Notes: generated by a model from the letters alone, not told the origin. A stretch of DNA of 64,000 bases from an uncultured delta proteobacterium (GCA_963815115.1 CAWFFN010000012.1:768001-832000), one strand, 5' to 3'. Positions 7,355-52,519 are shown, counted from the first letter of the stretch. Numbers and translations: made by a program.

Positions 7355-7780
7355 TCATCGGCCGTTCGCCGGCGTCACGGATGATGGTGGTCCTGAAGTT
7401 CCCTCCACTCCGAGCGCCTCGTTCAGCGGCCCGATCGCGAACAGCCAGAGCAGGTAGTAGACCACCGGCAGGAACACCGGCAGCACGATGGCGGCGGGAA
7501 ACCACGCGCCTTCCGCCAGGAAGAGCAGGTTGACGCCGACCGCCGCGAGGAAACCCAGGAGCGCGCCCCACGCGCCGATCCCGAGCCGCGGCTGCCGGCG
7601 CGCCCAGAGCAGATTCCACAGGCCCCACAGGATCGGTAGCAGGAAGAACGGCACCTGCCGGAGGGGCATCGCCGGGACCAGCGACGCCATCGACGTGCGC
7701 AGCGCGTACGGCCCGACGAGCACCGTTCCCGCCACGCCGGCGCCGATCAGGTAGGCGAGCAGGTCGCGGCGGCGAACCAT
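7355..7780 (-). CDS. Hypothetical 4-TM membrane protein in the ECF operon
   Basis: Four hydrophobic segments; starts 3 nt after the upstream gene ends. Confidence 0.75.
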   Translation of the reverse strand: MVRRRDLLAYLIGAGVAGTVLVGPYALRTSMASLVPAMPLRQVPFFLLPILWGLWNLLWARRQPRLGIGAWGALLGFLAAVGVNLLFLAEGAWFPAAIVLPVFLPVVYYLLWLFAIGPLNEALGVEGTSGPPSSVTPANGR

Positions 7781-7783
7781 GCG

Positions 7784-7996
7784 TCAGAGGAGGCCGCCGG
7801 CCGTGAGCACGCGAAGCGGGTCGGGCACCACGGCGAGGGTAGCGATCGCGACGGCGAGCGCCGCCATCTCGCCCCAGCCCATCGCCGGCAGGCGCAGCGG
7901 GACGCGCTCGTCGCGTCCCAGCCGGGCCCGGACTCGCGGCCAGAGGTCGCGGTCGGGTGCGGGCGTGCCGGAGCGGATCAGGTCGAGCGTTTGCAT
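7784..7996 (-). CDS. Small putative anti-sigma factor (70 aa, single TM)
   Basis: Directly downstream of the ECF gene; P.RDLWPRVRARL motif followed by a TM helix; GAGGAG RBS. Confidence 0.65.
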   Translation of the reverse strand: MQTLDLIRSGTPAPDRDLWPRVRARLGRDERVPLRLPAMGWGEMAALAVAIATLAVVPDPLRVLTAGGLL

Positions 7997-8003
7997 TCGT
8001 GGA

Positions 8004-8552
8004 TCACTCCTCTGGCTCCAGGTCTGCGAGCATGACACGGAGCCGGCGCAGGCCGTGGAACAGGCGGGACTTGACGGTGCCGAGCGGCGCACGCGTCACG
8101 CGCGCGATCTCCTCCAGCGACAGCTCGCCGAGCAGGCGCAGCGAGCATGCCTCGCGCTGCGCCACCGGCAGCGCGGCGAACGCCGCCGCAACCCGCTGCT
8201 GGATGTCGTCCCGGACCTCCGCGGGCGGGGTGCCGATCTCCGGCGCGTCCGACAGCGGCAGCCAACCCCACAGGCGTCTGGCGCGCAGGCGATTGCGGGC
8301 CAAGTTGCGTGCGATGGCGAAGATCCAGGGACGCAGGGGCGCGCCCTCGCGCCAGCGCTCCCGGTGTCGGTGCAAGCGCAGGAACGTCTCCACCACCAGA
8401 TCCTCTGCGGTCGCCGGGTCGTCCAGGATGCGCGCCAGATGGCGGCCCAGCGGTGCCTGGTAGCGGCGGAAGATGATCTCGAGAGCCGTGGGATCCCCCG
8501 CTCGGAAGGCCGCAAAGAGCGCCTCGTCGCTCGGCTGCGGCGCAGCTGACAT
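8004..8552 (-). CDS. ECF RNA polymerase sigma factor
   Basis: SDEAL..GD..A, AEDLVVETFLRL, WIFAIARNLARN (region 2); LSLEEIARVTRAPLGTVKSRLFHG (region 4). Confidence 0.93.
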   Translation of the reverse strand: MSAAPQPSDEALFAAFRAGDPTALEIIFRRYQAPLGRHLARILDDPATAEDLVVETFLRLHRHRERWREGAPLRPWIFAIARNLARNRLRARRLWGWLPLSDAPEIGTPPAEVRDDIQQRVAAAFAALPVAQREACSLRLLGELSLEEIARVTRAPLGTVKSRLFHGLRRLRVMLADLEPEE

Positions 8553-8566
8553 CCGTCATGCCTGCT

Positions 8567-8593
8567 GTACCCCGGAAGCGGGCAGGAAGTTCA
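8567..8593 (-). promoter_or_regulatory. ECF-type promoter for the sigma operon (TGAAC-N16-GGGTAC)
   Basis: Minus strand reads TGAAC ttcctgcccgcttccg GGGTAC just upstream of the sigma ATG. Confidence 0.7.
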
Positions 8594-8607
8594 ATGGCTC
8601 CGGCCAT

Positions 8608-8634
8608 TGAACCCGGGACGCGCCTTGCGGGTAC
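8608..8634 (+). promoter_or_regulatory. ECF-type promoter for the kinase-P450 operon (TGAAC-N16-GGGTAC)
   Basis: Plus strand reads TGAAC ccgggacgcgccttgc GGGTAC, with the same boxes and spacing as the divergent promoter. Confidence 0.7.
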
Positions 8635-8666
8635 CTGGAGACGAGTGCAAGGAGAGGAGGCCGGTG

Positions 8667-8855
8667 ATGATCCCCTTCGACTACGGGTTCGGTGCCTTCC
8701 AGGCGCCCGTCGCGCGGGCGCTCGCCTGGCTCGCCACCCTCGGTGCCGGCGCGACGATCGCCGTCGTGGCGCTCGTGGCCGTCGAGCTGCGGCGAGCGAC
8801 TCGCCGCAGCTCGACCGTTCGTTCCGTGCCGCCGACGCTCCGCGAGGCGGCCTGA
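8667..8855 (+). CDS. Small single-TM protein (62 aa)
   Basis: GAGGAGG RBS; MIPFDYGFG..., one TM helix, basic tail; ends 2 nt before the next gene. Confidence 0.7.
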   Translation: MIPFDYGFGAFQAPVARALAWLATLGAGATIAVVALVAVELRRATRRSSTVRSVPPTLREAA

Positions 8856-8857
8856 TC

Positions 8858-11470
8858 GTGCTGCGCCGCTTCGTCGCCTACCGCGTGCTCCGCATCGCCG
8901 CCGTCGCGGTGCCGGCGATCGTGCGCTACCGCTGGCTCGATCTGCGCGAGCGACTCGGGCGGCCTGCACCGCCCGAGGCCTGGGAGCGGGTGCACGACCA
9001 CGTCGCGCTCGGACTGCACGACCTGGGCGTCCATCTTGCCGGGCTCTTCGTGAAGCTCTGCCAGGTGGTGGGCGCCCGCGCGGACAACTTTCCCGCTCCC
9101 TTCATCCGCCGGCTCGGGCGGTTCCACGACGCCGTCCCGCCGCGTTCCTTCTCCGAGATGCGGCGGCAGATCGAGCGCGAGCTGGGTCGGCCCCTCGAGG
9201 AGGTCTTCCTCGACGTCGACGAGGCGCCGCTGGCGGCCGCCTCGCTGGCCCAGGTGCACCGCGCCACGCTGCTGGACGGCACCCCGGTCGCGATCAAGGT
9301 GCAGTACCCGGAGATCGCGCACCTCGCGCGTGTCGATCTGGCCAGCCTGCGCCTGGTCGGCCGCGCCGCCGGAAGCCTGCTGCGCGTCTTCGACCTGCGC
9401 AGCATCATCGACGAGATCGCCGAGTTCGTCGCGCTCGAGCTCGACTTCGCCCGCGAGGGCGACACGACGGAGCGCATCCGCGCGGCCCTGGCGGACGACC
9501 CGACGGTGCGCGTGCCGCGCGTCCACCGCCGCTACACCACGGGCAAGCTCCTGGTCCTCGAGTATCTCGACGGCATCAAGGTGACCGACCTCGACCGGCT
9601 CCGGGCGGCGGGCCACGACCTGGCCGAGGTCGCGCGCCGCATCGGGCGCCTCTATGCGCGCATGATCTTCGAGCAGGGCTTCTTTCAGGGCGACCCGCAC
9701 CCCGGGAACCTCCTCGTGCTCCCGGGCACCGTCATCGGGCTGCTCGACTTCGGCCTGGCCAAGGAGCTGCCCCCCGGCTTCGGCACCGCGGTCGGCGAGC
9801 TCGTCACCCGCGGCCTCGCGGGTGACGCCGGCGGAGCGCTCGCCGCCGCACGGCGCGCCGGCTTCGTCGTGCCCGACGATCAGGCGACGGCGCTGCCGGG
9901 GCTCGTGCTGGTGCTCCTCGGCGACCGTGACGAGCAGGCCAACGCGGCGGCGCTCATCGCCCAGACGCCGGTCACGCGAGTGCCGAGCCATTTCGGCCTC
10001 ATCGCTCGCGTCATCCTGCTGCTGAACGGCCTCTCGCACCGCCTCGCCCCCGGCCAGCTCCTGGTGCAGCGCGCCCTGGTCGAGGCGATCGCCGAGCAGT
10101 CGCCCGGGCCGGGCGCGCAGCCCGCAGCCGGCGACGGACTCCCGCCCGGTCCCGACGGACCACCCCTGCTCCAGGTCCTGCGCTGGCTGCAGTGGCCCCT
10201 GCCGCTGCTCGACGAATGCGCCCGCCGCTTCGGCGACACCTTCACGCTCCGCCTCCCCGGCAGCTCACCCGTCGTCTTCTTCTCCCACCCCGACGCCATC
10301 CGCGCCATCTTCACCGGCGACGAGGAGGATCTGCGCGCCGGCGAGGCCAACGCCACCCGTCTCGAGTCGATCCTCGGGAAGCATTCGCTCCTCCTGCTCG
10401 ACGGTCAGGAGCATCTGCGCGAACGCCGGATGCTACAGCCGCCCTTCCACGGCGATCGCATGGAGGCCTACGGGACGGTGATGCGCGACATCGCTGCCCG
10501 CGCCGTCGACGCCTGGCCCGCCCGGCGTCCATTCCCGATCCATCCGGAGATGCAGGGCGTCACCCTCGACGTCATCCTGCGCACCGTCTTCGGGCTCGAC
10601 GAGGGTCCCGCCAAGCGCGAGCTGCGGGGGGCGCTGATCGAGCTCCTCGGCATGGGCGCGAATCCGCAGCTCCTGCTTGCCGCTGCGCAATCGAACGGGA
10701 ACCCGGCGGGAGCGGCGGCCCGGCTCCTGGCAGTTCGCACGCGCGTCGACGAATTGCTCTTCGGCGAGATCGCGACGCGCCGGCGGGCCGACGTCGCCGG
10801 CCGCAGCGACGTCCTCTCGCTCCTCGTCCAGGCGCGCGACGAGGACGGCCGCCTCCTCGACGATCAGGCCCTGCGCGACGAGCTGGTGACGATTCTCCTC
10901 GCGGGTCACGAGACCACGGCGACGGCGCTGGCGTGGGCCGTGAGCCATGTCCTCGCGCACCCCGACGTGCGCCGGCGGTTGCACGACGAGCTGCGCGGCG
11001 CCGGTCCCGCTCCGCTCGATCCGCAGCGCGTCACCCGCCTCGAGTACCTCGACGCGGTGTGCCGCGAGACCCTCCGCCTGACGCCCATCCTGCCGATCGT
11101 GGGCCGCCGGCTGACCCGGCCGATGCGCCTGGGAGGCGTCGACCTGCCTGCCGGGGCGGTGGCGGCTCCGTGCATCTATCTGGCCCACCGCCGCGTCGAG
11201 CGCTGGCCGGAGCCCGAGCGCTTCCGGCCCGAGCGCTTCCTCGAGAGCAAGCCCACGCCGTACGAGTTCTTCCCCTTCGGCGGCGGCGTGCGCCGCTGCC
11301 TCGGCATGGCGTTCGCGCTCGCCGAGATGAAGATCGTCCTCGCCGAGGTGCTCACCCGGGTCGAGCTCACGGCAGCGCCCGGCTACCAGGTCCGGGTGGT
11401 TCGCCGCAGCGTCACCCTGGCGCCGTCGGAGGGCATGCCGGTCGTGGTCGAGCGTCGGGCGGCTGCCTGA
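8858..11470 (+). CDS. UbiB/ABC1 (AarF) atypical kinase - cytochrome P450 fusion
   Basis: Kinase half: KLCQ, AAASLAQVHRA, VAIKVQYP, ELDF.REG, GDPHPGN, LLDFG. P450 half: LPPGP, AGHETT, ETLR, PERF, FGGGVRRCLG. Confidence 0.92.
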   Translation: MLRRFVAYRVLRIAAVAVPAIVRYRWLDLRERLGRPAPPEAWERVHDHVALGLHDLGVHLAGLFVKLCQVVGARADNFPAPFIRRLGRFHDAVPPRSFSEMRRQIERELGRPLEEVFLDVDEAPLAAASLAQVHRATLLDGTPVAIKVQYPEIAHLARVDLASLRLVGRAAGSLLRVFDLRSIIDEIAEFVALELDFAREGDTTERIRAALADDPTVRVPRVHRRYTTGKLLVLEYLDGIKVTDLDRLRAAGHDLAEVARRIGRLYARMIFEQGFFQGDPHPGNLLVLPGTVIGLLDFGLAKELPPGFGTAVGELVTRGLAGDAGGALAAARRAGFVVPDDQATALPGLVLVLLGDRDEQANAAALIAQTPVTRVPSHFGLIARVILLLNGLSHRLAPGQLLVQRALVEAIAEQSPGPGAQPAAGDGLPPGPDGPPLLQVLRWLQWPLPLLDECARRFGDTFTLRLPGSSPVVFFSHPDAIRAIFTGDEEDLRAGEANATRLESILGKHSLLLLDGQEHLRERRMLQPPFHGDRMEAYGTVMRDIAARAVDAWPARRPFPIHPEMQGVTLDVILRTVFGLDEGPAKRELRGALIELLGMGANPQLLLAAAQSNGNPAGAAARLLAVRTRVDELLFGEIATRRRADVAGRSDVLSLLVQARDEDGRLLDDQALRDELVTILLAGHETTATALAWAVSHVLAHPDVRRRLHDELRGAGPAPLDPQRVTRLEYLDAVCRETLRLTPILPIVGRRLTRPMRLGGVDLPAGAVAAPCIYLAHRRVERWPEPERFRPERFLESKPTPYEFFPFGGGVRRCLGMAFALAEMKIVLAEVLTRVELTAAPGYQVRVVRRSVTLAPSEGMPVVVERRAAA

Positions 11471-11573
11471 GCGCGGGCTGCCCTGGTCGGCTGATCGAGG
11501 CGCCCCGGGAGGCCCGGATGGGTCACCAAAATAGATGTTGTAAGTGCAGTCCAACCCGGAGTAGTACGGCCCG

Positions 11574-11587
11574 ACTGACATGTCAGT
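11574..11587. promoter_or_regulatory. Perfect 14-bp palindrome ACTGACATGTCAGT, possible operator
   Basis: Lies in the AT-richer intergenic region upstream of the 11726 gene. Confidence 0.45.
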
Positions 11588-11671
11588 ATTGGATGTCAGG
11601 CGAGCGCGGTGCGGACCGCGTGAGAGCCGAAACCCATGCCCAGACCCGGAGCGCCCGCTCCGGGCATCGCC

Positions 11672-11709
11672 GACGGATGCCTAGCCAACAGACGGATGCC
11701 TAGCCAACA
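11672..11709 (+). repeat. Perfect 19-bp tandem duplication (GACGGATGCCTAGCCAACA x2)
   Basis: Copies at 11672-11690 and 11691-11709, directly before the AAGGAGG RBS. Confidence 0.9.
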
Positions 11710-11725
11710 AAGGAGGGGGTTCAAC

Positions 11726-13903
11726 ATGAGACTGTCTGCTTTCGCGAGCGTCTTGGTCCTCGCCGCACTCGTCAGAGGTGCCGCTGCACAGGTCGTCCCG
11801 CCACCATTGACCGCCACCGTGGTCAACTTCGACGACATGGTGGCCAGTGATACCTGCATGCCCAACGGGCCCATCACCAACGAGTACGCGGGGCTCGGTC
11901 TGATCTTCAGCGGCTTCGGGCTGAGTGGCGGCGCCCTCATCAACGGAAATTGCAACTACGGCAACAACGGCATGGCGGTGTCGCCGCCGAACCTCATGGG
12001 CTTCGCCACCATCATCAACTACCCGAACGGCGGCGCCGAGATATCTCCCGAGACCCTCACCTTCTACCCGCCGATCACCTACCTGCAGTTGGACACCTTC
12101 ACTTTCTCCGACATCTGCGAAGGGACCAACATGTTCTTCGCCAACGCATTCGCGGAGGACGGCACACCGGTCGGCAATATCTCTTTCGTGAACGGCGACC
12201 CCAGGACGGTACAATTCACGTTCTCGCCGACGCCCGCGCAGAAGGTGGTCATCACCAGCAACAAGACATGCGGAAATTCGTTCCTCAAGGGCGTCGAGAC
12301 GTTCACCCTCGACAACATCGCCTGGATTTCCGTGCCGGCCGCCGCGAGCAAGTGCGCGCAGGGCGAGATCGACGCCGCCGGCAAGAAGGCCAAGGCCATC
12401 GCGACCTGCTACTCCAAGGCGCTCCAGAAGGGCCTCGAGGTCGATCAGAGCTGCATCCAGAAGGCCGTCAACACCTTCAACAGCAGCGTCGCCAAGTCGC
12501 AGGACAAGGGCGATTGCCTGGTCGGTGGCCGCCATGGTGACAACCAGGACGTGAGCCAGCTCGAGGCCGCCGTCGACAACCTGATCGCGAGCAGCCTCCA
12601 GATGGTGACCGGCGGGCAGCCGGGACCCAGCATCTGCTTCGGCAAGAAGCTCGCCTCGATCGGCAAGAAGGCGCAGTCCTTCACGAGCTGCTGGTCCAAG
12701 GCGGCAAAGAGCGGGACGAACCCGGACGAGGCATGCGCCCAGAAGGCCGCGAGCTCGTTCAACGGGTCGCTCAAGACGTGCGGCACTCCGACCCAGCTCG
12801 CCCCGCTCGAGTTCCTGATCGACCAGTTCGGGAATGCCGTCTCCCGGAGCATCCAGGTGCCGACGACCACGACGACCACGACGACCACGAGCACCACCAC
12901 CACCACCCAGCCGCCGCCGCTGGGCGACCACCTGAGCTTCACGACCACGCCGGGCACCGCCAACTGCACGATCGCGCCGACGGATGACCCGATGACGTCG
13001 TTGCCGGCCCCGCCGTTCTCGGGCGAGCTCGACTCCGACACGGCCGGCACCACCAAGATCGCCGATCTCGGCCTGGGCTGCCTCTACATCGGCGGCGGGA
13101 TCGCCACCGTCGCGCCGTCGCAGATTCCGGAGAATGCGACCTCGATCTTCAACACCACCGATGGGATCAACCTGACGGCGAGCCTCGGCACGAGCCGGGA
13201 GGATTGCACGACGGGACCGCAGCCGACCCTGCACTGCGTCAACAATGGCGCCGTCGAGTGCACGAGCGACGCCGACTGCGCCAACACGCCCGGCGGCTGC
13301 GCGCCCGATGCCACCTGCTTCTTCGGTCCCCCGATCCCGGTCAACGGCTTCCCGCCGACCTGCGTCATCAACGTCTTCGCGGCCGACGGGAGCGGGACGC
13401 TGGACATCCCCACCGGCCAGTCGAGCGTCAGCATCAACCTCGGCTCGCGCGTCTACCTCGCGCCGTTGTTCAGCGGCATGACCTGCCCGTCGTGCAGCGG
13501 TGGCTTCTGCGACAGTGGACAGAACGCCGGACAGCCGTGCTCGACGGCGAACAGCGCCAACACCAGTCTCGAGTGCCCGCCGTTCGACTCGCAGTTCATC
13601 TCCACCCTGCCCGTCGACCTGACCCCGCTCAGCAGCGGGACGACCACGGTCACCGCAGCCGATGGCATCTTCTGCTCTGGGCAGATCAATGCGGGCGCAT
13701 TCGGTCAGGCGGCGACGCAGGCAATCACCCAGGTGGGCTCGCCATCCGGAGATCTGTCGGACGGCCTGCCCCATGCCGGCGTCCTGGTCAGCGACTTCTG
13801 CATCCCGGCGACGGGCAACGTCGCCCTCGACGGGATCGCCGACCTGCCCGGTCCGGGCTCGCTCAGCCTGCCGGGGAACGCGACGTTCGTCACCGTACCG
13901 TAG
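11726..13903 (+). CDS. Exported multidomain Cys-rich protein (beta domain, paired Lys/Cys helical module, Thr linker, Cys-rich C-terminal domain)
   Basis: AAGGAGG RBS, signal peptide MRLSAF...AAA-Q, poly-Thr linker, strong GC3 codon bias. Confidence 0.85.
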   Translation: MRLSAFASVLVLAALVRGAAAQVVPPPLTATVVNFDDMVASDTCMPNGPITNEYAGLGLIFSGFGLSGGALINGNCNYGNNGMAVSPPNLMGFATIINYPNGGAEISPETLTFYPPITYLQLDTFTFSDICEGTNMFFANAFAEDGTPVGNISFVNGDPRTVQFTFSPTPAQKVVITSNKTCGNSFLKGVETFTLDNIAWISVPAAASKCAQGEIDAAGKKAKAIATCYSKALQKGLEVDQSCIQKAVNTFNSSVAKSQDKGDCLVGGRHGDNQDVSQLEAAVDNLIASSLQMVTGGQPGPSICFGKKLASIGKKAQSFTSCWSKAAKSGTNPDEACAQKAASSFNGSLKTCGTPTQLAPLEFLIDQFGNAVSRSIQVPTTTTTTTTTSTTTTTQPPPLGDHLSFTTTPGTANCTIAPTDDPMTSLPAPPFSGELDSDTAGTTKIADLGLGCLYIGGGIATVAPSQIPENATSIFNTTDGINLTASLGTSREDCTTGPQPTLHCVNNGAVECTSDADCANTPGGCAPDATCFFGPPIPVNGFPPTCVINVFAADGSGTLDIPTGQSSVSINLGSRVYLAPLFSGMTCPSCSGGFCDSGQNAGQPCSTANSANTSLECPPFDSQFISTLPVDLTPLSSGTTTVTAADGIFCSGQINAGAFGQAATQAITQVGSPSGDLSDGLPHAGVLVSDFCIPATGNVALDGIADLPGPGSLSLPGNATFVTVP

Positions 13904-16886: not shown

Positions 16887-19800
16887 ATGCTTTTTTCCCG
16901 AACGGTGTCCGTTGCGCTCGTCTGCGCCTTCCTCGCGCTGGCCTCTGGTCCCGCCCAGGCCGCGATCTCGTTCGTGCAGGGACTCGGCACCGCTCAGGCG
17001 AACAGTGGCTCGACGCTCTCGATCGAGCTCGGCGCAGCCATCACGGTCCCGGTCGGCGATACGATCATCGTGAGCTTCGCGATGAACCCGCGGGGTGAGC
17101 GTCGGCGACGTGCAGTGCTCGGACTCGGGCGCGAACGTGTGGCACGTCGATGGGGACGTGACGCGCGGCTCGGCAATCGACGGCGTGCGCGCGGTGACGT
17201 GCTCGACCCGCGTCACCACCGCGCTCGCGAACGGGCGACTCGATCACCGTGAGCCATCCTGCGAACGCGGACGAGCGCGCCATGACGGCGACCGAGTTCT
17301 CGGGGCTGCGCGCGAACGCGGTCGACCGCGTGGCCACCGGCCTGGGCGTCGATGACCCCAGCCCGCTGACCGCCATCACGGCCGTCACGACGATCGCCAA
17401 CGAGCTCCTGGTGGGTACGATCGGCGTCGAGGGAACACCCCAAGCCCCCGATACCTTCACGGTGGGTGCGGGCTACCTTCCGCTCGCGCGCGCGGGAACG
17501 CTGGGTGGCGGCGCGGCGGGCAACATCTCGGTCAACGGCGAGTACCGGATCGTGAGCGCCACGGGCCAGTACGTCGCCAACGCGACGCTCGGCGTGGCGC
17601 GAGACTGGGCCGCGATCATCACGACCTACGAATCCGCATGCGGGAACGGCGTGGTCGACCCCGGCGAGCAGTGCGACGACGGCAACGCGGTCGCCGGCGA
17701 CTGCTGCTCGGCTGCGTGCACCTTCGAGCCCGCCATCACGGTCTGCCGGGCCTCGGCGGGCTTCTGCGACGTCGCCGAGACCTGCACCGGCTCGAGCGGC
17801 ACGTGTCCGGCCGATGCGAAGAGCACCGCCGTATGCCGGGCGTCGGGCGGCGACTGCGACGGCGCCGAGTCCTGCGACGGCGTGCACGACGACTGTCCAC
17901 CCGACACCCTGCCGGCGATGGCCGGAACCGTGTGCCGCCCGAGCGCCGGGGCCTGCGACATCGAGGACACCTGCGACGGCGTGCACCCGACCTGTCCGCC
18001 CGACGCCAAGAGCACGGCCGTCTGCCGCGGGGCGGCGGGGCCCTGCGACGTGGCCGAGTCCTGCGACGGCGTCAACAACGCGTGTCCGCCCGACGTCCTG
18101 GCGAGCGCGCAAACCCCCTGCCGCGCCGCCGCCACCTTCTGCGATCAAGTCGAGAACTGCACCGGCTCGAACGCGCTATGTCCGCCGGACGCCAAGAAGG
18201 CCGCGACGATCGTGTGCCGCCAGGCCGCGGGCATCTGCGACGTGGCCGAGTTCTGCGACGGCATCACCGATGATTGCCCGGCGAACGGCTTCAAGGGAGC
18301 GGGGGACGGAGTGCCGCGGCTGCCGGCGGAGTCTGCGACCTTGCAGAGAGCGTGCACCGGCTCGAGCGCCGCCTGTCCCGCCGACGTGAAGAGCACCTCT
18401 CCGTGCCGCCCGGCGGCTGGCGCGTGCGACGCCGCCGAGTCGTGCGACGGCGTCCATGACACCTGCCCGGCCGACGAGTCTCGCCCTCGTGGGTACGACC
18501 TGTCGAGACGCTGCTGGCGATTGTGACGTCGCCGAGACCTGCACCGGGATCGAGCCGAGCCTGTCCGCCCGACGCCTTCGCACCTGCCACGGTCACGTGT
18601 CGGCCTGCGGCCACATTTTGTGACGCCCCCGAGTCCTGCACGGGGTCGAACGCGGCCTGTCCTCCCGACGCGAAGAAGCCGCCGAGTGTCGTCTGCCGGG
18701 GGGCCGTGGGCACGTGCGACGTGGCCGAGTTCTGCGACGGCGCCAACAATGCCTGCCCGCCGAACGTCTTCGTCACGGGCGGGACGGAATGTCGGGCCTC
18801 CGCGGGCGATTGCGATCCCGCCGAGACCTGCACGGGCTCGAGCGGGGCGTGCCCCGCCGACGCCAAGAGCACGGCGGTCTGCCGGCCCGCGGTGGGCGCG
18901 TGTGATTCCGCCGAATCGTGCGACGGCGTCAGCAACGGCTGCCCGCCCGACGTGATGGCGCCCGCCGGCGCCGACTGCCGTGCGTCCGCCGGCACGTGCG
19001 ACGTCGTCGAGAAGTGCGACGGCAACGGCACGGCCTGCCCCCAGGACAAGTTCGTGACGGCAGGGATCGTCTGCCGCCCGGTCGCCGGCACCTGCGACGT
19101 CGCGGAGACGTGCACGGGCAGCAGCCCGCTGTGTCCGGCGAACGGATTCGTCGCGCCCGGCGTCGAGTGCCGTGCCTCGGCGCGGCGTGTGCGACCCGGC
19201 CGAGCAGTGTACCGGCTCGGCAGCCGCGTGTCCGCCCGATGCGAAGAGCACGGCGACGTGCCGCCCGACCGCGGGCGACTGCGATCTTCCCGAATCATGC
19301 AATGGCTCGAGCAACGACTGCCCGACCGATGCGAAGAAGACCGGTGTGTGCCGCCAGGCTGCCGGCACGTGCGACGCCGTGGAGTCCTGCAACGGCACGA
19401 GCAACGACTGCCCCCAGGATCTCTTCCTGCCGGGCGGCACGACCTGCCGTGCCGTCGCTGCCGGTTCGGCGGGCGCGTGTGACATCGCCGAGCAATGCAC
19501 CGGGTCGAGTCCCATCTGCCCGACCGACGACATCAAGGACGCTGGCGTGCCGTGCCGGGCAGCCGCCGGCCAGTGCGACGTGGCCGAGGCGTGCGACGGG
19601 GTGCACCCGGCCTGCCCGGCCGATGCCAAGAGCACCGCACAGTGCCGCGCCTCGGCGGGTGACTGCGATCCCGCGGAGTCGTGCGACGGCACGCACAACC
19701 ACTGCCCCGCCGACGCGAAGAGCGCCGCCGTCTGCCGGCCCGCCGTCGGAGCGTGCGACGTCGCCGAGTCGTGCAACAACAGGGACAACGACTGTCCCGC

Positions 19801-23660: not shown

Positions 23661-26630
23661 CTACGCGAGCGTCGCGGCGTCCGCGGCACCGGCGTCCAGG
23701 AGTGTGGCGGCTTCGCGCAGGTCCGGCGCGTCGTGGCCCTCCCTGAACCAGCCGTACACGGCGGCGAGCCCGTCCCGAGCCTCCGCGTCCCGTTCCCGAC
23801 CTCGCAGCAGGCGACTCAGGCTGACCGCGGCCCGAAGCTCGAGCGATCTGGCCTGCTGGCGGCGTGCAATGTCGACCGCGCTCCGGAAACACCGCTCCGC
23901 GTCGGGGTGGTCCGGCGGCGGGTCGCCAGTACCGTCGCGCCGCAGGAGCAGGTCGCCCTTCAGCCGGAGCAGCTCCGCCTCGAAGTAGCGCTCCCCGTGG
24001 CGCTCCAGCGCGTCGAACGCCTGCAGCAGCTCGTGGTGCGCGTCGTCCAGCCGGCCGATGCGGGTGTAGCCCTGCACCGCAAGGGCGCGATAGGCGGCCT
24101 CGTGGGTGCCGGCACCCATGCCGCAGTAGCTGCGGATGCCGCGCTGCAAGAGCTCGACGGCCTCGGAGCCCGGTGCGAGCTCGGCCAGCGCCCAACCCCG
24201 TTGCACCGAAGCGATGGCGGTCCAGTACGCGAGGCCGTATTCCCCTGCCAGCGCGAGCACGCCGCGCGCCAGCTCGTCGACGCGGCGGTGATCCTGTCGC
24301 AGCACGTGGACCCAGGCCGCGTGCGTCAACGCGAGGGCCAGCGTCGGCGGATGGGACAGGCTCTGCGCCCAGCCGAGCGCCGCCTCGGCGCACGACCGCG
24401 CTTGCTCGGGATGGCCGGCGAGCCACAGGACGCGGGCGAGGTGACCGAGGCAGCACACCTTGGGGTCGTGGCCGCTGAAGCGATGCGCATCGGGCGGCGG
24501 CTCACGATCGTAGAGCGCGATGCATTGCTCGAGATGTGCTCTCGCGGCCGCCAGATCCGTCGCCCGCAGGCGGTTGCATCCCATCGCATGGTGGCCCTCG
24601 ATCAGGAGGGCGCCATCGCCGGACTCCTCGCCGAGACGGAGCAACTGCCGCGCCAACGGGCTACCTGTCTCCAGGTCTCCCCGGATGCTGTAGAAAGCCT
24701 CGAGGCCCCCGATCACCACGAAGCGCTCCGGGCAGTCGCCGATGCGCTCGGACAGCGCGAGGGCACGCGCATAGACGGCGCCGACCTCTGGCGCCGCGAA
24801 GCCCTGCACCTGAGACAGCGCCCCGCCCAGGGCGATCTGCACCTGGAGCTCGTCGAGCGTCCGCGTCCCGGCGTCGGGTGAGCCCGGGAGCTCCCGGAGC
24901 GCGGCACGGAGATGGGCCGCGGCTTCGGTGAATGCGTTGCGCAGGACGGCCTGCTCGCCGGCATGGCGGTGATGGCGGAAGGCGCGGGCGTGATCCCCGG
25001 AACGCGCGAAGTGGCCCGCCAGGGTGACGGCGATCTCCGGCGTGCGGCGCCCGTAGGCTGCCTCGAGTCGCTCGCCGATCCGCTGGTGCAGCCGTCTCCG
25101 GACGCTCTCGGGAACGAGACCCAGCAGCACCTCGAGATGCAGAGCGTGCGTGAAGGCATACTTCCCGCTCGCCGTCCCGTCCGGCCACTCGCCGATCCCG
25201 AGGCGGCGCAGGAACTGTCCCCGCCGTGCCAGCGCGGCGCACGATGCGTCCACCGCCTCGACGTCCTCCTCGAGCGCAACCGCCACCTCTCCCGCGCTGA
25301 ACTCCATCCCCGCGACGCCGGCCGCCTCGAGGATCCGCTGGTGCTGCCTCCCCACCCGCCCGATCTGCTTCTCGATGGCTCCGCTCAGGCTTCTCGGCAT
25401 CTCACGGAGCAGGGTCTCGAGATCGGGCGTCGTCGCGCCTCCGCCGCCGTTCGTCTCCTCGCTCGCGGCCCTCAGGCTCGAGGTGACGTGCGCCACGAAG
25501 AGGGGGTTGCCACCCGTCCGCCGATGCAGGGCGTGTGCGAAGCCCTCCGGAAGTGGGCGGTCTCCCAGGCGCGCCCGCAGGTACTCCTCGGTCGCGGCCT
25601 CGGTGAGCGGCGGCAGCGGCACCTCGGCGCAGGACTCGCCGTGCTCCAGGAGACGACGGATCGCGTCCAGCGAGTGGTCGTCGATGCCGGCCTCGACTGA
25701 TCGATAGGTCCCGACCACCAGCAGGCGCGCGGGGCCGCGTTGATGAGCCAGCGCCACGAGCATGTCGAGCGTCGAGGGATCGCTCCAGTGCAGATCCTCC
25801 AGCACGACGACGATCGGCGTCCGGGTGGTGAGTGCTTCGATGCCGACGACCATCTCGCGCAGCATCCGTAGCCGCGTCACTCCGGCATGCTGCCGCTTGA
25901 GCGCCTCCCGATCGGAGGCAGAGATGAGCCCCGAGAGCTGCAGCAGCCAGGATGGCGCGTGCTCGCGCAGAAGGGATACGAGTTGATCCCCCGTCGGCCC
26001 GCGGCAGAGACGATCCAGCGCCTCCAGCACCGGCATGAAGGCTTCACCGGGCCCGTTCTGCTCGACGCACTGCCCGCGGGCGATTCCCAACACGCCCCGG
26101 GTCGCGGCACGTTCCAGGAACGCCTCGACGAGCGTGGTCTTCCCGATTCCCGGACCGCCGGTCACGAAGACGATCTGACGCTGGCCAGCCAGGGCACGCT
26201 GGAGGTGGCCGTCGAGGCGCTCGAGCTCCGGGTCGCGACCCACGATCGGGCAGCGCGGTCGCCTGCCCCCGCCGACGGGTCCCTCTCCGGCACCAACCGC
26301 CGCGATGAACCGGTACCCGCGACCATGAACGGTCTCGATGAAGCGGGGCACTCTCGCGCTGTCGCCCAGGGCCTTGCGGAGCTCGCTCATGCAGACCGCG
26401 AGGACGACCTCGCTCACCGAGACCTCAGACCACACGGCACCCAGCAGCTCGTCCTTGGTCACGAGTCGGTTCGGGCGCAACGCCAGGAAGTGCAGCAGAG
26501 CAAGCGCCCGATGGCGAAGGGGAACCACCTCGTCCCCGCGCACCAGGCGCCCCTCGGCCATGTCGAGCACGTAGGAGGCGAAGCGAATCGGCGGGGCTGG
26601 CAGCTTGGGATGCTCGGGCGGCCTGGTCAT
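23661..26630 (-). CDS. Winged-helix (OmpR/CadC-type) - AAA_16 STAND NTPase - TPR regulator
   Basis: LVTKDELL..VW, LRKALGD..PRFIETVHGRGYRFI; Walker A GGPGIGKT; Walker B VVVLEDLHW; GGNPLF; C-terminal SLELRAA..L. Confidence 0.92.
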   Translation of the reverse strand: MTRPPEHPKLPAPPIRFASYVLDMAEGRLVRGDEVVPLRHRALALLHFLALRPNRLVTKDELLGAVWSEVSVSEVVLAVCMSELRKALGDSARVPRFIETVHGRGYRFIAAVGAGEGPVGGGRRPRCPIVGRDPELERLDGHLQRALAGQRQIVFVTGGPGIGKTTLVEAFLERAATRGVLGIARGQCVEQNGPGEAFMPVLEALDRLCRGPTGDQLVSLLREHAPSWLLQLSGLISASDREALKRQHAGVTRLRMLREMVVGIEALTTRTPIVVVLEDLHWSDPSTLDMLVALAHQRGPARLLVVGTYRSVEAGIDDHSLDAIRRLLEHGESCAEVPLPPLTEAATEEYLRARLGDRPLPEGFAHALHRRTGGNPLFVAHVTSSLRAASEETNGGGGATTPDLETLLREMPRSLSGAIEKQIGRVGRQHQRILEAAGVAGMEFSAGEVAVALEEDVEAVDASCAALARRGQFLRRLGIGEWPDGTASGKYAFTHALHLEVLLGLVPESVRRRLHQRIGERLEAAYGRRTPEIAVTLAGHFARSGDHARAFRHHRHAGEQAVLRNAFTEAAAHLRAALRELPGSPDAGTRTLDELQVQIALGGALSQVQGFAAPEVGAVYARALALSERIGDCPERFVVIGGLEAFYSIRGDLETGSPLARQLLRLGEESGDGALLIEGHHAMGCNRLRATDLAAARAHLEQCIALYDREPPPDAHRFSGHDPKVCCLGHLARVLWLAGHPEQARSCAEAALGWAQSLSHPPTLALALTHAAWVHVLRQDHRRVDELARGVLALAGEYGLAYWTAIASVQRGWALAELAPGSEAVELLQRGIRSYCGMGAGTHEAAYRALAVQGYTRIGRLDDAHHELLQAFDALERHGERYFEAELLRLKGDLLLRRDGTGDPPPDHPDAERCFRSAVDIARRQQARSLELRAAVSLSRLLRGRERDAEARDGLAAVYGWFREGHDAPDLREAATLLDAGAADAATLA

Positions 26631-26817
26631 TCGGGTCGACTTCACGAATCTTCCCCTGGGCTGTCCCGAGGCCCAGCCACGGGGGCGGGTCTCTACGCCA
26701 AACGTGGCCGTCCGCACAAGTGCCACGATGCCGCGTCCAGATGGAGACCGAAGAATAATTGAAGGACTTGGGCCGTCCGCGCGGGATACGATCGCGGTCA
26801 GAAAGTCGCCCCTGCAT

Positions 26818-27393
26818 ATGACGAAAAAGAGCCCTTCATACGACGTCGAGACTGGGCGGGCTCCAGGCGGCGAACCCCCGGCGACTCCCCCGCGGAGCGA
26901 CGGTGGACGACCCGCTGGGACCGGGCCGAAGGTCGTCCTGCTACGCGGCCGGGGGGCACTCGGGCCGGTCGAACAGCCCCCGGGGACCTCGGATCTGCGG
27001 CTCGATCTGCAAGGCCCGATCGACAGCCTGCGCTCCATCCGGGGCGACCTGGAGCTCTACTACTGGGAGCGCCCCGGCCACGGCGAGCAGCAGGAGCGCG
27101 AGCGGTACCAGGTGAGCCTCTGGATCCGGCAGGTCAGCGAGCGAACGGCGGCGCTGGAGGGCATCCTGCTCCACATGGGTACACCGTCGGTCGTCTTGAG
27201 CGCCGTCGGCACGGCCGAGGGCGAGGCGCTTCGGAGCGAGGCCCGTCTCCTCCGCTGCTGGATCCGGGAGGAGGAGCCGTTCGAGCAGGTCCTCCACACC
27301 GTGGCCGGCGTTCTGCATGCCGCCGACGTCATCTGCCTCGGCGCGGCCGGCGGGAGAGCCGAGGCCAGAGCAGGCCGACCCCGGCTCCCGTAG
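26818..27393 (+). CDS. Hypothetical protein (start uncertain)
   Basis: Globular helical core (LELYYWE...ERYQVSLWIRQVSER); divergent from the STAND regulator. Confidence 0.6.
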   Translation: MTKKSPSYDVETGRAPGGEPPATPPRSDGGRPAGTGPKVVLLRGRGALGPVEQPPGTSDLRLDLQGPIDSLRSIRGDLELYYWERPGHGEQQERERYQVSLWIRQVSERTAALEGILLHMGTPSVVLSAVGTAEGEALRSEARLLRCWIREEEPFEQVLHTVAGVLHAADVICLGAAGGRAEARAGRPRLP

Positions 27394-27443: not shown

Positions 27444-28487
27444 TCATGGGATCCACGCCACGATCACCTGCGTGCCGGGTGTCGCGCTGGCGGCGCGAGG
27501 TTCGAGCGTCACCTGGATGCCGTCGGGCGAGAGGGCAAGCTCGGGGCTGTCGGCGATCAGGCGGCCACTTCCATCGGCGTCGGGCTGCACCGCGCCCAGC
27601 GAGGTCCAGCTGGTGCCGTGCCGCACCCACACCTGGTACGTCTGTCCAGCCGGCGCCGCCGGGAACCTGGAGAGAGTGATCACGGCGATCGTGGCCCCGG
27701 GGCGCCCGCGGTAGCGGGCGTGGGTGCCCTGGGCTTCCTCGGGCGTCCCGGGTGCGGGGGAGAGGCGGAGGTTCACGCTGTCGCTCGCCGTCACCATCGA
27801 GAGCGCCCGGTCATAGCGTGCCAGCGTGGCGTGCTCCGACCAGTGGCGAATTCCGAGAACGGCCAGCACCGAGAGTGCGGCCAGCGCCGCCCAGTGCGGA
27901 GCGAGCGTCCCGCGCAGCTTCTGGAGGCCCGCACGGATGCGTGTCTTGGCCGTTCCGAGCGGCAGGCCGAGCTCGGCTGCGACCTGCTCGTGCGTGAGAT
28001 CGTCGAGGAAGGCGAGGCTCAGCGCCTGCCGTTGCGCGAGCGGCAGCTCATCGACCGCCGATTGGATGATGGCGCGGCGGCGCTGCTGCGAGGCCGCCTC
28101 GGCGGGCCCGAGGTCACGCGCGGCCAGCCCTTCGAGCACGAACCCGTCGGGATCGGCGACGATCTCCGGCTGGCGGCCGCGCCGACGCAGCTCGTTCAGC
28201 AGGCGGAAGTGCGCGATCTGCAGGAGCCACGAGCGTACCGTGCCGCGCTCGGGATCGAAGCGGGCTGCGTTGCGCCAGACCACCAGGAATACCTCTTGCA
28301 CCAGGTCCTCGGCGGCCGTGCGGTCGAGCGTCTGAGCGGCGAGCGCGAAGATCGGCCGCGCGAAGCGGCGGTGGAGCAGCCCGAGCGCCTCGGCGGAGCC
28401 CTGGGCCACCTGGCGCATCAGCGCCTCATCGCGCGGGGCGTCCTCCCTCGATGGCATCCGCCGGCGTCCGTTGGTGTGAGCGTACAT
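27444..28487 (-). CDS. SigK-like ECF sigma factor fused via a TM helix to an RskA-like anti-sigma C-terminal domain
   Basis: AEDLVQEVFLVVWRNAARFDPERG, LTHEQVAAELGLPLGTAKTRIRAGL; TM WAALAALSVLAVLGI; then PAAPAGQTYQVW, SLG, VTLEP...P. Confidence 0.88.
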   Translation of the reverse strand: MYAHTNGRRRMPSREDAPRDEALMRQVAQGSAEALGLLHRRFARPIFALAAQTLDRTAAEDLVQEVFLVVWRNAARFDPERGTVRSWLLQIAHFRLLNELRRRGRQPEIVADPDGFVLEGLAARDLGPAEAASQQRRRAIIQSAVDELPLAQRQALSLAFLDDLTHEQVAAELGLPLGTAKTRIRAGLQKLRGTLAPHWAALAALSVLAVLGIRHWSEHATLARYDRALSMVTASDSVNLRLSPAPGTPEEAQGTHARYRGRPGATIAVITLSRFPAAPAGQTYQVWVRHGTSWTSLGAVQPDADGSGRLIADSPELALSPDGIQVTLEPRAASATPGTQVIVAWIP

Positions 28488-41500: not shown

Positions 41501-41812
41501 CGGCCCGTCGTCTCCCAGCTCGGCGCGGAGCCGCTCCGGAGGCGTCGCCGCGACGTACGCGCGCAGCGCCTGGATCCACGGCCAGTAGGCGGGCGCGCCC
41601 TCCATCTCCTGGCATCGCCCCCACAGGACGCGACCGGGCGCTACGCCGGCGGCGGCCTCCTCGACCAGCCTGGTCTTGCCGACCCCGGGCTCCCCGCGGA
41701 CGACCACCACCCGGCCGCTGCCCCCCTGCGCCGCGGTGATGTGTGCCGCAAGCGACTCTCGTTCGGCGACGCGACCGACGAAGGGGCGATCCGTCGGCCC
41801 CACGACTGCCAT
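38510..41812 (-). CDS. AAA_16 STAND NTPase - TPR protein with C-terminal putative DNA-binding domain
   Basis: FVGR..E, GEPGVGKT, IVLDDLHWAD, TEGNAFFV, FTHALLQE; C-terminal KG..YL..LL..PG.EFH ... ERARLNVT ... TGLFCAYQP. Confidence 0.9.
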   Translation of the reverse strand: MAVVGPTDRPFVGRVAERESLAAHITAAQGGSGRVVVVRGEPGVGKTRLVEEAAAGVAPGRVLWGRCQEMEGAPAYWPWIQALRAYVAATPPERLRAELGDDGPQVARVVPSVCTRCPDVVAATDETLDPEAARFRLFDAVTMFLRTIARTELLVIVLDDLHWADNESLLLLTFVARELREQRLLVLGTYRETELRQAAAAARVLGDLARSSHRLTLTGLTAADVGEYVLATCGRAPAPEAVEAILRATEGNAFFVTEVVQLLITRGQLDASALRSGHLDLPAGVQEVIRRRIEPMSSAGRRILAAAAVIGREFEFGVLARIVGLPVEAVFSELAEAVRLGAIEDVEERPGGFRFTHALLQETLTGDLGVTERAELHRTTAEALEAVHGEALDPVLGDIAHHYFEAAPLGTLVKAIEFASRAGQYAFGQLGYEEAAGHFERALQASRGTTVSPDTRLAILLPLGSAQQAAGDAEGARATLIEAAQLARDLGYTYIFPVALTVAPREETGTVDWPFVRLLEEAVELVGSRDGHPRTILLAQLARSLYFADATRRHAYSEEAVAIARRRHDDVALLAALRARQLALWEPGEAAHRCEIGEQILELATAARDPMAMAEALGWRILDHLELADMPVVHEALRRYRELAAACRLPTVRWHVTVVEGTLAQLAGRLGDARRLARRAVGLLTPSNLNNVAAFFGVQSFMIRAEEGRLGEIEPFVVMAAERGVNLPIWRAALAMLHATLGRTDAAHQVLDDLGRAGFEDLPRDGNLLGTYANLAQACALAGAPRFAEPLVPLLAPHVDAVVILATTVGCLGSAARYAGLLAHTLGQLDTAIAHFESALAKNERIGALPQLAHTQHELARSLRARGKRGDRERAATLLAEAAATAARLELVALHERLAADDAASRTPAAVPAAPAHASPASRIARLRHEGDVWTVNCEDELTRLKDMKGVAYLLELLRNPGHEFHALDLGGAEDLRAGDAGEMLDADARRAYKARLGELQGELQEAEEFNDIGRAARLREEMEMLADELNRATGLGGRARKAGSDAERARLNVTRAVRKVVRKIEAGCPVLGRHLDRSVQTGLFCAYQPDPTFPVEWEL

Positions 41813-52400: not shown

Positions 52401-52519
52401 GCCGGAGCGACCACGGCCTCCGCCTCCTCGGGGTCGAGCTCCGCCATGAGGTCCATGGAGCCCTGGATGTCGGCGAAGAGGGCGGTGACGATCTTGCGCT
52501 CGCCTTCGGTCGCAATCAT
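49415..52519 (-). CDS. Class III adenylate/guanylate cyclase - AAA_16 - TPR protein
   Basis: ERKIVTALFADIQGS, TGDGVFALFGAP, RVGLNTGEVV; GEAGVGKS; EDLHWVD; EGNPFF; FKHALTQE. Confidence 0.92.
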   Translation of the reverse strand: MIATEGERKIVTALFADIQGSMDLMAELDPEEAEAVVAPALALMSDAVARYDGHVVQSTGDGVFALFGAPVAYEDHARRALHAALRMQDDIRRYAERLRLEKGTSLAIRVGLNTGEVVVRSTHHGDGPADVVSVGHAIGLAQRMESLADPGCVVVSERTYALTTGFFDFQPLGAARVKGAPEPVRLYQLLGVGRLQTPFERRAAGGLARFVGRAPELAILERALAEAIHGAGRSVAVVGEAGVGKSRLFHELKGRARERALVLDAGCAPHGKAFSYLPIMELVRCYCSIRPDDDERHRREKVTGKVLALDRALEDTLPHLLSLLGIADAGASLQQMAPEIRQRRTHEALARLWLRESIERPLVVIVEDLHWVDAESALFLEDFAAAAAHASVLLLTNYRQEYREGWSTTQLQLEPLRPHDAKALLTALLGENAALAAVHELVLAKAEGNPFFMEEIVQALVEQGVHEHGPLTDIRLPASVHEVLAARIDRLDPATKALLQTLAVVGRTVGSDLASEVSGEPDEELRRQLATLEAADFLYEERSRAGTQYVFKHALTQEAAYASLLGDRRRALHERAARAIERVFAADLRAHHGAIAHHYERSGDAGQAIEHLGLAAEQAAARSANAEAEHQLTTAIQLLATVPVSRARDRRELVLQARLGTVLVATRGHAAPAAERAYARAEALCEEVGEAPELLTALHGLAGVSIEQGRLGRAAALAQRLLERGGQAGDEALVMEARRLLGEIRFWHGEPYRARRHLDDVLRVYDVGRHGSHALRYGHDPSIVSQGYLAMVSWICGKADEAQLRARALVDFARQRAHPFSLSIALFFAAWVYQLRREPGRARDLGEALIAVATEQGFPEWLGWGEFVHGWALAEEGRAREGIAEMERGCVAAIGARSNFNSAARACLAATYIQEGRAAEALAIVDTECAVLEETGARAFEAELHRIGGEALGRCEGPSRGAEARLRRAVEVARRRGGPALQLRAATSLARFWTSTGDPTGARDLLAPLYARFTEGLDTADLVSARTLLASLGA

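Follow-up and report, generated by a model that had tools for sequence, protein, structure and literature searches.

The ABC1/UbiB proteins form an ancient and widespread family, disease-linked in the case of COQ8A and COQ8B (ADCK3/4), whose role is debated, those considered being kinase, ATPase, lipid extractor and decarboxylase. The COQ8 proteins are described as ATPases in which a C-lobe pocket, with access gated by ATP hydrolysis, holds coenzyme Q (CoQ) intermediates by their head group, and which help to pull a precursor from liposomes and hand it on to their client enzymes (PMC13418538); for E. coli UbiB, delivery of membrane intermediates to the Ubi complex, which is soluble, has been proposed, possibly not its sole task (bioRxiv 10.64898/2026.03.05.709815). 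Two further members, MABP-1 (Rv3197) and MSMEG_1954, are reported to be ATPases devoid of transmembrane (TM) segments that bind erythromycin, its pocket being opened when an accessory domain shifts in a nucleotide-dependent manner (PMC6208485, PMC8696161), the shift being caused in MSMEG_1954 by ADP binding (PMC8696161), and MSMEG_1353, a mycobacterial ATP-binding protein of this kind that is listed as a Rv0647c homologue, is reported to influence the envelope lipids (bioRxiv 10.64898/2026.02.26.708182). P450 BM3/CYP102, the CYP116B-type enzymes and CYP51-ferredoxin combine in one polypeptide a cytochrome P450 and a helper domain, the latter being a redox domain located on the C-terminal side. 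The present analysis concerns a fusion of an ABC1 domain with a cytochrome P450, encoded in a 64,000-nucleotide stretch of DNA (71% GC) from an uncultured delta proteobacterium (GCA_963815115.1 CAWFFN010000012.1:768001-832000); this whole stretch is hereafter called the window and all coordinates are counted from its first letter.

The ABC1-P450 fusion is a genuine, conserved protein and not an artefact. Its two domains are textbook families, and what is new is the P450 fusion partner, which is not a redox domain, does not act catalytically on the same product and, unlike the redox domains of P450 BM3 and its like, lies N-terminal to the P450. The gene and its parts are as follows:

8858..11470, plus strand: ABC1-P450 fusion open reading frame (ORF), 870 amino acids plus TGA, start GTG 8858 (Pfam, third-position GC content, homologue starts)
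8858..10090, plus strand: ABC1/UbiB-family atypical kinase-like ATPase domain, residues 1-411 (Pfam PF03109, invariant residues)
10091..10135, plus strand: inter-domain linker, residues 412-426, SPGPGAQPAAGDG..., 15 residues rich in Pro, Gly and Ala
10136..11467, plus strand: cytochrome P450 domain, residues 427-870 (Pfam PF00067, invariant residues)

The reading frame is free of stops from 8558 through to the TGA at 11468-11470, and the GTG at 8858 is taken to be the true start because the GC content at third codon positions (GC3) switches frame upstream of it and because it matches the starts of the homologues. Indeed, GC3 in the fusion frame is 0.88-0.97 in every 300-nt interval between 8858 and 11470, being continuous over the domain junction with no frame switch, whereas between 8558 and 8857 it is 0.59 in this frame and 0.83 in the +1 frame, that of a small upstream ORF; the equivalent of MLRR is the start in most homologues, in which KxCQ is found at offset 65 as in the window protein. 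Furthermore, a GAGG precedes the GTG by ~12 nt and the upstream ORF terminates, with a TGA, 2 nt short of it. This start, already chosen in the initial annotation, therefore stands, and so does the description of a single 870-aa ORF containing one complete ABC1 and one complete P450 domain: in the product Pfam finds PF03109 (ABC1) at residues 89-323 (E 2.8e-69, 233.4 bits, threshold 22.9; profile positions 2-236 of 244) and PF00067 (p450) at residues 429-849 (E 1.9e-67, 228.5 bits, threshold 22.8), with no third Pfam family in the 870 residues and none that would bind flavin mononucleotide (FMN), flavin adenine dinucleotide (FAD) or an iron-sulfur (Fe-S) cluster.

The signature of the ABC1/UbiB proteins consists of a KxGQ N-terminal extension, an Ala-rich loop, a Lys and a Glu, a DxHPGN loop and DFG, that of the P450s of the I-helix (A/G)GxxT, the K-helix ExxR and PERF. 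In the ABC1 half the N-terminal accessory helices carry K66-L-C68-Q69 (KLCQ, 9053-9064) and are followed by the A-rich loop A127AASLAQVH134, VAIK, K147, E194/D196/E200, D279PHPGN284 and D297FG, the C-lobe helices ending at about residue 414 according to the secondary structure of an AlphaFold2 (AF2) model. The P450 half begins at an LPPGP hinge and contains the I-helix A682GHETT, E737xxR740, PERF (P791-F794) and the heme loop F807GGGVRRC814LG, in which the codon of Cys814 occupies 11297-11299; all the P450 motifs previously named (AGHETT, ExxR, PERF, FGGGVRRCLG) are thus present. When 67 proteins of the same type (group F1, 61-90% identical to the window protein) are aligned, K66, C68, Q69, A127-H134, K147, E194, D196, E200, D279-N284 and D297-G299 of the ABC1 half are invariant in 67/67, and the same is true of A682-T686, E737, R740 and F807-G816, heme Cys814 included, of the P450 half, PERF being invariant or nearly so. 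The alignment indicates that the ABC1 half and the P450 half are both under constraint.

The linker region (10091-10150) has zero stops and zero ATG, GTG, TTG or CTG triplets in all three plus frames, and between residues 380 and 470 the sole in-frame start-like codon is the GTG at 10064, which falls within the last ABC1 helix. In the F1 family the linker varies in sequence and little in length, the segment equivalent to residues 409-427 comprising 17-19 residues in 59 of the 67 proteins (range 15-25). The AF2 model, calculated from the family alignment, has a mean predicted local distance difference test score (pLDDT) of 78.9 and a predicted template-modelling score of 0.72; pLDDT falls below 50 at linker residues 418-422, and helices span residues 6-73 in the N-terminal extension. 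No TM-grade segment is found in the ABC1 half, whose top 19-residue Kyte-Doolittle mean is ~1.55, hydropathy exceeding 1.6 only in the P450 core helix that follows the heme Cys. Prediction of a complex between the two halves as separate chains, with the family alignment, gave scores of 0.49, 0.09 and 0.11 (mark 0.32), obtained without controls and speaking neither for nor against a contact.

That the gene was not created by an accident of sequencing or assembly is demonstrated by its relatives. A word-indexed search with the whole protein scored 8000 candidates, 743 of which matched at E ≤1e-3, and the domain content of the best 120, which were listed, was scored with custom hidden Markov models built from sequences of the analysis. 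Both domains occur in 99 of these 120 listed matches, with ABC1 N-terminal to the P450 in 99/99, and the other 21 are P450 only; the 99 comprise 81 proteins that are full length in both halves and 18 that are partial (the window's own entry counted), and the 81, which are 815-902 aa long, divide into 76 of the window type (F1, own entry counted) and 5 of a second type (F2). The F1 proteins are 853-902 aa long, 61-90% identical to the window protein, and originate from JGI, ENA, NCBI and Logan assemblies; the few records that bear a source name are called Candidatus Binatia, Thermodesulfobacteriota or simply "bacterium".

The shorter or odd relatives are collinear with the query in 22/22 cases, the near ones being fragments or frameshifted copies. 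Thus, the relatives that are "P450 only" by Pfam at ≥64% identity are fragments, since they start within the ABC1 part (query residues 292-386), and P0088, P0124 and P0125 are frameshifted copies and not split genes, since they continue into an Arg/Pro-rich out-of-frame stretch; no clean split form was seen among the relatives examined at ≥64% identity. When the P450 half alone is used as query, the matches at ≥69% identity consist of fusions and of short pieces from contigs of 1.2-6.4 kb (pieces that were not checked one by one), the first full-length stand-alone P450 being P0308 (446 aa, 61% identity), so that a gap in identity separates the fused copies (≥69%) from the stand-alone ones (≤63%). 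As to the ABC1 half, phmmer, run exhaustively against representatives clustered at 50% identity, returned no full-length stand-alone protein above 54% identity, a result from which the clustering could hide some. Errors do happen in high-GC metagenome assemblies, as illustrated by the frameshifts of P0088, P0124 and P0125 and by the apparent chimera P0081, and a merger of two neighbouring genes in the window would be an error of this sort. Against such a merger stand 81 in-frame full-length fusions from four sources, a linker without stop or start in any frame, unbroken coding statistics and the lack of a clean split form, and the idea, rejected here, retains only a vanishing probability. The initial annotation, which had deemed an indel-joined gene pair unlikely, was right in this respect; the homologues are not always two genes, both domains being found together in most of those listed.

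P0081 deserves a separate mention. This Logan contig product equals P0066, from a Binatia metagenome-assembled genome (MAG), over residues 1 to ~575, i.e., ~150 residues into the P450, after which identity drops to ~45-55%; judging by this pattern it looks like an assembly chimera or a recombinant of a fusion gene with a paralogous stand-alone P450. It was included in alignments A1 and A2, A1 being the query of the genome-locus search described below.

No paper on an ABC1-P450 fusion was found in the full-text literature, a scope outside which lie subscription-only papers and the InterPro/UniProt architecture tables, and within it the earlier statement that no example has been characterised is borne out. 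The architecture itself already exists in the databases, under names such as "cytochrome P450/predicted unusual protein kinase..." (JGI) and "cytochrome P450" (NCBI). In the part of the Binatota genome survey that was available, P450 is mentioned only as the cyp153 marker (PMC8262859).

What kind of ABC1 protein, then, is fused to the P450? The ABC1 half alone matches 25,175 cluster representatives at E ≤1e-3. It shares with COQ8 and UbiB the Pfam family, the A-rich loop, the Lys/Glu pair, DPHPGN and DFG, and differs from them in having KxCQ for KxGQ, in belonging to a clade of the tree other than that of the 540-560-aa UbiB-like outgroup and in lacking TM segments. E. coli UbiB has C-terminal TM helices and a length of ~540-560 aa. 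The UbiB study made use of a C-terminally truncated purified form (bioRxiv 10.64898/2026.03.05.709815). Neither of the two NCBIfam UbiB equivalogs accepts the window protein (TIGR01982, 225.4 bits vs a cut-off of 487.55; PRK04750, NF003404, 157.1 bits vs 667), nor does the MABP-1 model NF050082 (123.6 bits vs 800). Among solved structures the closest by sequence are 5yjz (MABP-1, 6e-33) and 7cy2 (6.8e-33), the latter taken to be MSMEG_1954 going by its molecule name and by the three entries of the study in question (PMC8696161); COQ8B (1.9e-25) and COQ8A follow. The likeness to MABP-1 and MSMEG_1954 extends to the compact size (439-452 aa), the absence of TM segments and the arrangement of an N-terminal helical accessory domain followed by a kinase-like core, these two proteins being described as ATPases that accommodate a hydrophobic ligand in a nucleotide-gated pocket (PMC6208485, PMC8696161). 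They differ in being stand-alone proteins without P450, and the alignment spans residues 27-319 only; that to COQ8B ends at query residue 336, an Arg being among the residues of the COQ8 C-lobe pocket (PMC13418538).

A maximum-likelihood tree of 62 ABC1 domains, with UbiB-like proteins of 539-560 aa as outgroup, places the window ABC1 in a clade of 32 rows (support 100 in the Shimodaira-Hasegawa-like approximate likelihood ratio test, stem length 0.69) comprising 13 F1 and 5 F2 proteins along with 14 compact stand-alone ones (417-484 aa), the latter, where named, being mostly Myxococcota; the 411-aa window domain groups with proteins of 417-451 aa, away from the outgroup. Taken together, profile scores and tree indicate that the ABC1 half is a UbiB-family member and not a UbiB orthologue. 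A link to quinones is not indicated, because the equivalogs failed, there is no TM segment and the clade is compact (~420-450 aa) and near to MABP-1; no ubiquinone-pathway (Ubi/Coq) genes are present among the Pfam-scanned ORFs of the window. The connection with UbiB/COQ8 made in the initial annotation thus holds at the level of the family and not for UbiB or COQ8 themselves. Its observation of KxCQ in place of KxGQ is correct, and the residue is not distinctive: a search of genome contigs by alignment listed 80 loci, all with stand-alone ABC1 genes (28-52% identity; F1 and F2 genomes not included), of which 29 have Cys at the third position and 39 have Gly, followed by Ser (5), Ala (2) and Met (1), with 4 loci left unresolved. 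KxCQ as a fusion-specific trait was rejected on this account. In addition, ABC1 domains gain other C-terminal partners as well, since P0184, a 968-aa ABC1 protein 36% identical to the window ABC1 half, has a long C-terminal HEAT-repeat region.

The second group of fusions, F2, consists of P0106, P0108, P0110, P0111 and P0118 (815-866 aa; the single named record is Myxococcota), which have the domain order of F1, ABC1 and then P450. Their ABC1 half is 48% identical to that of the window, carries KLCQ and FHGDPHPGN, and contains in all five proteins an Arg/Glu-rich insert of ~25-30 residues in the C-lobe, between the equivalents of window residues ~355 and ~358, that is not found in F1; the linker also differs from that of F1. 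Their P450 half is another matter, being only 24-26% identical to the window's (BLAST E 1e-9 to 1e-13), without a PPGP start, with a heme loop FGxGxHxCLG, and CYP107-like as opposed to CYP110-like: it matches PikC, EryF, TamI, PksS and the vitamin D3 hydroxylase Vdh at 1e-93 to 1e-85, none of which appears among the best 60 of the 170 matches of the window P450 (E ≤1e-20) or in its list of fold matches. F1 and F2 form separate groups in the ABC1 tree, stand-alone proteins falling between the two and also inside them, as does one complete stand-alone gene (L001) that is nested in the F2 clade, and an exclusive F1+F2 clade was rejected at a cost of 221.6 log-likelihood units (approximately unbiased test, p 1.7e-80), the group to be constrained having been chosen after the first tree had been viewed. 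These comparisons indicate that one ABC1 clade is joined to two unrelated P450 families, either by two fusions or by one fusion and a replacement of the P450. In either case, selection has favored the joining of ABC1 to a P450 on more than one occasion. Queried with the whole protein, the Atlas hints at a possible further fusion group, a lead consisting of one cluster (score 0.83, 59 members, p450 in 100% and ABC1 in 85%) whose commonest phylum is Actinomycetota.

The nearest structures of the window P450, by sequence and by fold, are CYP184A1 (7wzl/7wzm), CYP120A1, P450 BM3, CYP3A and CYP4B (CYP4B1), a further structural match being the heme domain of CYP51-ferredoxin; the target template-modelling scores of the fold matches are 0.77-0.88. 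The ligands of the nearest structures are a fatty acid, a retinoid or a terpenoid, e.g., oleic acid in CYP184A1 (7wzm) and retinoic acid in CYP120A1. P450s are placed in the same family if they are >40% identical to a named member; the label CYP110-like used here derives solely from "cytochrome P450 family 110", a name automatically given by JGI to homologues. The stand-alone paralogues are 444-470 aa long, 55-63% identical and start with M..LPPGP; many of them are named Candidatus Binatia (P0308, P0335, P0368, P0370, P0393) and one Methylomirabilota. With these stand-alone CYP110-like P450s the window P450 shares the LPPGP start, the motifs and the CYP184A1/CYP120A1/BM3-like fold, and differs in the extra 426-residue N-terminal ABC1 extension, the N-terminus of the fused P450 coinciding with the M..LPPGP start of the paralogues. 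This P450 lineage takes other N-terminal partners too, since in P0104 (1062 aa) a carbamoyltransferase (Carbam_trans_N + _C) is joined to a P450 45% identical to that of the window.

The position occupied by ABC1, directly before the PPGP hinge, is that in which a microsomal-type P450 bears its membrane anchor, and one may ask if the domain serves only for membrane targeting or as a scaffold, standing in for the N-terminal anchor of a class-II-like P450, with no part played by ATP turnover. The fusion has no TM helix of its own, and COQ8 is described as associating with the membrane through its N-terminal region (PMC13418538). Yet 411 residues, with all ATP-site residues invariant in 67/67 sequences, would be a costly passive anchor, and the stand-alone paralogues do without one, which makes this explanation very unlikely. 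Nor is the ABC1 half a redox partner, since the 870 residues include no fused reductase and the scan of window ORFs revealed no gene for a ferredoxin or a reductase; the fusion is accordingly not self-sufficient and would need a separate redox partner.

The mechanism that we consider most likely, with a probability of roughly one half and by analogy with the described relatives, is one in which the ABC1 half, like COQ8, UbiB and MABP-1, would act as a nucleotide-gated module capturing a hydrophobic small molecule at the membrane surface or in the cytosol; a change of nucleotide state would then release the ligand to the covalently tethered P450, ~15 residues away from the last ABC1 helix, and the P450 would hydroxylate or otherwise oxidize it with electrons supplied by a separately encoded ferredoxin or flavodoxin system. 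Ligand capture, hand-over and ATP coupling are what we infer, and this capture-and-oxidize scheme is favored because the fusion is recurrent and because nucleotide-gated ligand binding has been published for the relatives. The model put forward for COQ8 and UbiB is that of an ATPase chaperoning CoQ intermediates to hydroxylase-containing complexes (PMC13418538; bioRxiv 10.64898/2026.03.05.709815); their clients are flavin or di-iron hydroxylases, whereas the client of the window ABC1 would be its tethered P450. The earlier suggestion that the kinase-like half presents a membrane lipid to its own P450 is, in the light of the two P450 families and of the ligand hand-over by the relatives, the best-supported reading as far as presentation is concerned, the membrane lipid being just one option: a membrane lipid, a soluble hydrophobic metabolite and a xenobiotic are equally open as substrates.

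Several points weigh against capture and hand-over. No interdomain interface or channel is seen in the AF2 output, which has no inter-domain error map. The 80 listed loci of stand-alone ABC1 genes include no fusion, and a P450 lies within 8 kb in only two of them (L031 and L042), which is no more than P450-rich genomes predict; a general ABC1-P450 gene linkage was rejected on the basis of these 2/80 loci. None of the four stand-alone genes that belong to the same clade (L001-L004) is close to a P450. Two of them do, on the other hand, speak for the scheme, lying in apparent operons directly upstream of a lipid-type enzyme gene: in L002 (Myxococcaceae, 7364-10445) a TetR gene and ABC1 are followed 88 nt downstream by a UbiA-family prenyltransferase, and in L004 (Myxococcales MAG, 7944-11318) ABC1 is followed 5 nt downstream by a PhyH-family dioxygenase and then by an aminotransferase, the neighbours of L001 and L003 being in no way telling; with n=4, L002 and L004 are anecdotes suggestive of lipid or oxygenase partners. 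MABP-1's ATPase activity is reported to be unaltered by erythromycin, its mode of action being unsettled (PMC6208485), and some plant ABC1K are reported to be true protein kinases, so that a regulatory role is possible (PMC8956952).

This last property leads to a different view of the fusion, in which ABC1, as a protein kinase or a sensor of nucleotides, would turn its attached P450 on or off, be it by phosphorylation or by an ATP/ADP-dependent conformational change. Regulator-target fusions are common, and the kinase-like set of the window protein (Lys, Glu, DPHPGN, DFG) is complete and invariant. In the ABC1/UbiB family the KxGQ-type N-terminal extension occludes the peptide site, and such an extension is present here (helices 6-73 of the AF2 model). 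Although at least one plant ABC1K is reported to be a Mn2+-dependent protein kinase (PMC8956952), COQ8, UbiB and MABP-1 are described as ATPases and ligand binders and not as protein kinases (PMC13418538; bioRxiv 10.64898/2026.03.05.709815; PMC6208485). Finally, regulation leaves unexplained the recruitment of two unrelated P450 families in the same order, and we regard it as unlikely; capture of a ligand by ABC1 followed by its oxidation remains the preferred explanation.

The immediate surroundings of the gene bear upon yet another possibility. Upstream of the fusion are found:

8667..8855, plus strand: small ORF preceding the fusion, 62 aa when started at ATG 8667 (frame open from TTG 8607), containing a single hydrophobic TM-like segment
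8004..8552, minus strand: extracytoplasmic function (ECF)-type sigma-70 factor (Pfam Sigma70_r2 and r4_2; TIGR02937, 70.1 bits vs 42.9)
7355..7780, minus strand: 141-aa membrane protein with several hydrophobic segments (Kyte-Doolittle maxima 2.0-2.4), downstream of the ECF sigma gene

The small ORF has a Kyte-Doolittle maximum of 2.13, a sub-threshold LapA_dom match (19.4 bits vs a cut-off of 28), no NCBIfam match and Atlas matches (0.85-0.88) that are leads only; its translational coupling with the fusion is possible. The hydrophobic N-terminus of the frameshifted P0124, alike by eye, was tried as evidence for its conservation and rejected, BLASTP giving nothing (E 49). The ECF sigma gene is divergent, 54 nt separating its start from the small ORF's open frame, a position that makes its product a candidate regulator of the fusion operon; the 141-aa membrane protein, which has no Pfam or NCBIfam match, may be its anti-sigma partner. 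A promoter and terminator scan of 8400-11800 returned no sites, such a scan being uninformative for ECF-type promoters. Farther upstream, at 4-8 kb and in mixed orientations, lie genes for a patatin-like lipase, a chalcone-isomerase-like protein and a PAP2 phosphatase, and no biosynthetic cluster is evident around the fusion gene among the scanned window ORFs.

A divergent ECF sigma gene and a membrane-protein gene adjoining the operon, in the absence of a biosynthetic cluster, would be in keeping with a defence function of the same capture-and-oxidize mechanism, in which ABC1 would bind an incoming hydrophobic xenobiotic or antibiotic and the P450 would inactivate it, the sigma factor inducing the operon under envelope or chemical stress. 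The nearest solved ABC1 relatives are indeed the macrolide-binding resistance ATPases MABP-1 and MSMEG_1954 (PMC6208485, PMC8696161), and NCBIfam does list the MABP-1 model for the window protein; its score, however, is far off the cut-off (123.6 vs 800 bits) and identity to MABP-1 is low. Likewise, the F2 P450 is akin to the macrolide hydroxylases PikC and EryF, but many PikC/EryF-like P450s use unrelated substrates, and the window P450 is nearest to fatty-acid and retinoid binders and not to macrolide enzymes. Control by the ECF sigma factor is suggested by position only. On balance, we judge a defence role rather unlikely, the ligand of the capture-and-oxidize scheme being left as broad as stated above.

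Other observations concern the remainder of the window. Just 3′ of the fusion stop an AT-rich island (11520-11600) contains a perfect 14-bp palindrome, ACTGACATGTCAGT (11574-11587), with a partial repeat, ATGTCAG, near it; this island might serve as operator or promoter of the gene that follows. The latter (ORF 11636-13903, plus strand) encodes 755 aa that begin in the manner of a signal peptide, contain many Cys and a run of Thr and match nothing in Pfam, and its Cys-rich product is probably secreted; further Cys-rich genes of secreted type that match Disintegrin or DUF4215 are located at 17249-18526, 18523-19482 and 41936-44776. In the ORF at 27444-28487 (minus strand) ECF sigma regions 2 and 4 occur together with a C-terminal anti-sigma domain of the RskA type, which points either to a fusion of sigma and anti-sigma or to an ORF call that has run through two genes. 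There are also three large genes for AAA_16 (STAND-like) ATPases at 23661-27038, 38510-41812 and 49415-52612, all on the minus strand, one with Trans_reg_C and TPR repeats and one with an adenylate/guanylate cyclase domain.

What would the joining of an ABC1 domain to a P450 mean for the two families? Fusion to an oxygenase constitutes a Rosetta-stone argument for substrate delivery by the UbiB family to a hydroxylase, and this argument is the stronger because the pairing involves two unrelated P450 families. The fusions might even be covalent chaperone-client pairs, the compact UbiB-family clade consisting of general ATP-driven loaders that draw poorly soluble molecules from membranes or from solution to feed oxygenases and that have been hard-wired at least twice, to unrelated P450 families, a generalization to which we give somewhat less than even odds. 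If hand-over does occur, the protein would be the first system in which that of UbiB/COQ8 proteins can be measured within a single polypeptide, with P450 spin shift or turnover as the reporter, and would represent a new class of P450 fusions in which the partner gives substrate and not electrons. It would be a convenient model, being soluble-looking, without TM helix and endowed with the optical read-out of the heme, and would be of relevance to the engineering of P450s for very hydrophobic substrates. Furthermore, the fusion points to an unstudied compact ABC1 clade, found mainly in Myxococcota- or Binatia-named records and with occasional oxygenase or prenyltransferase neighbours.

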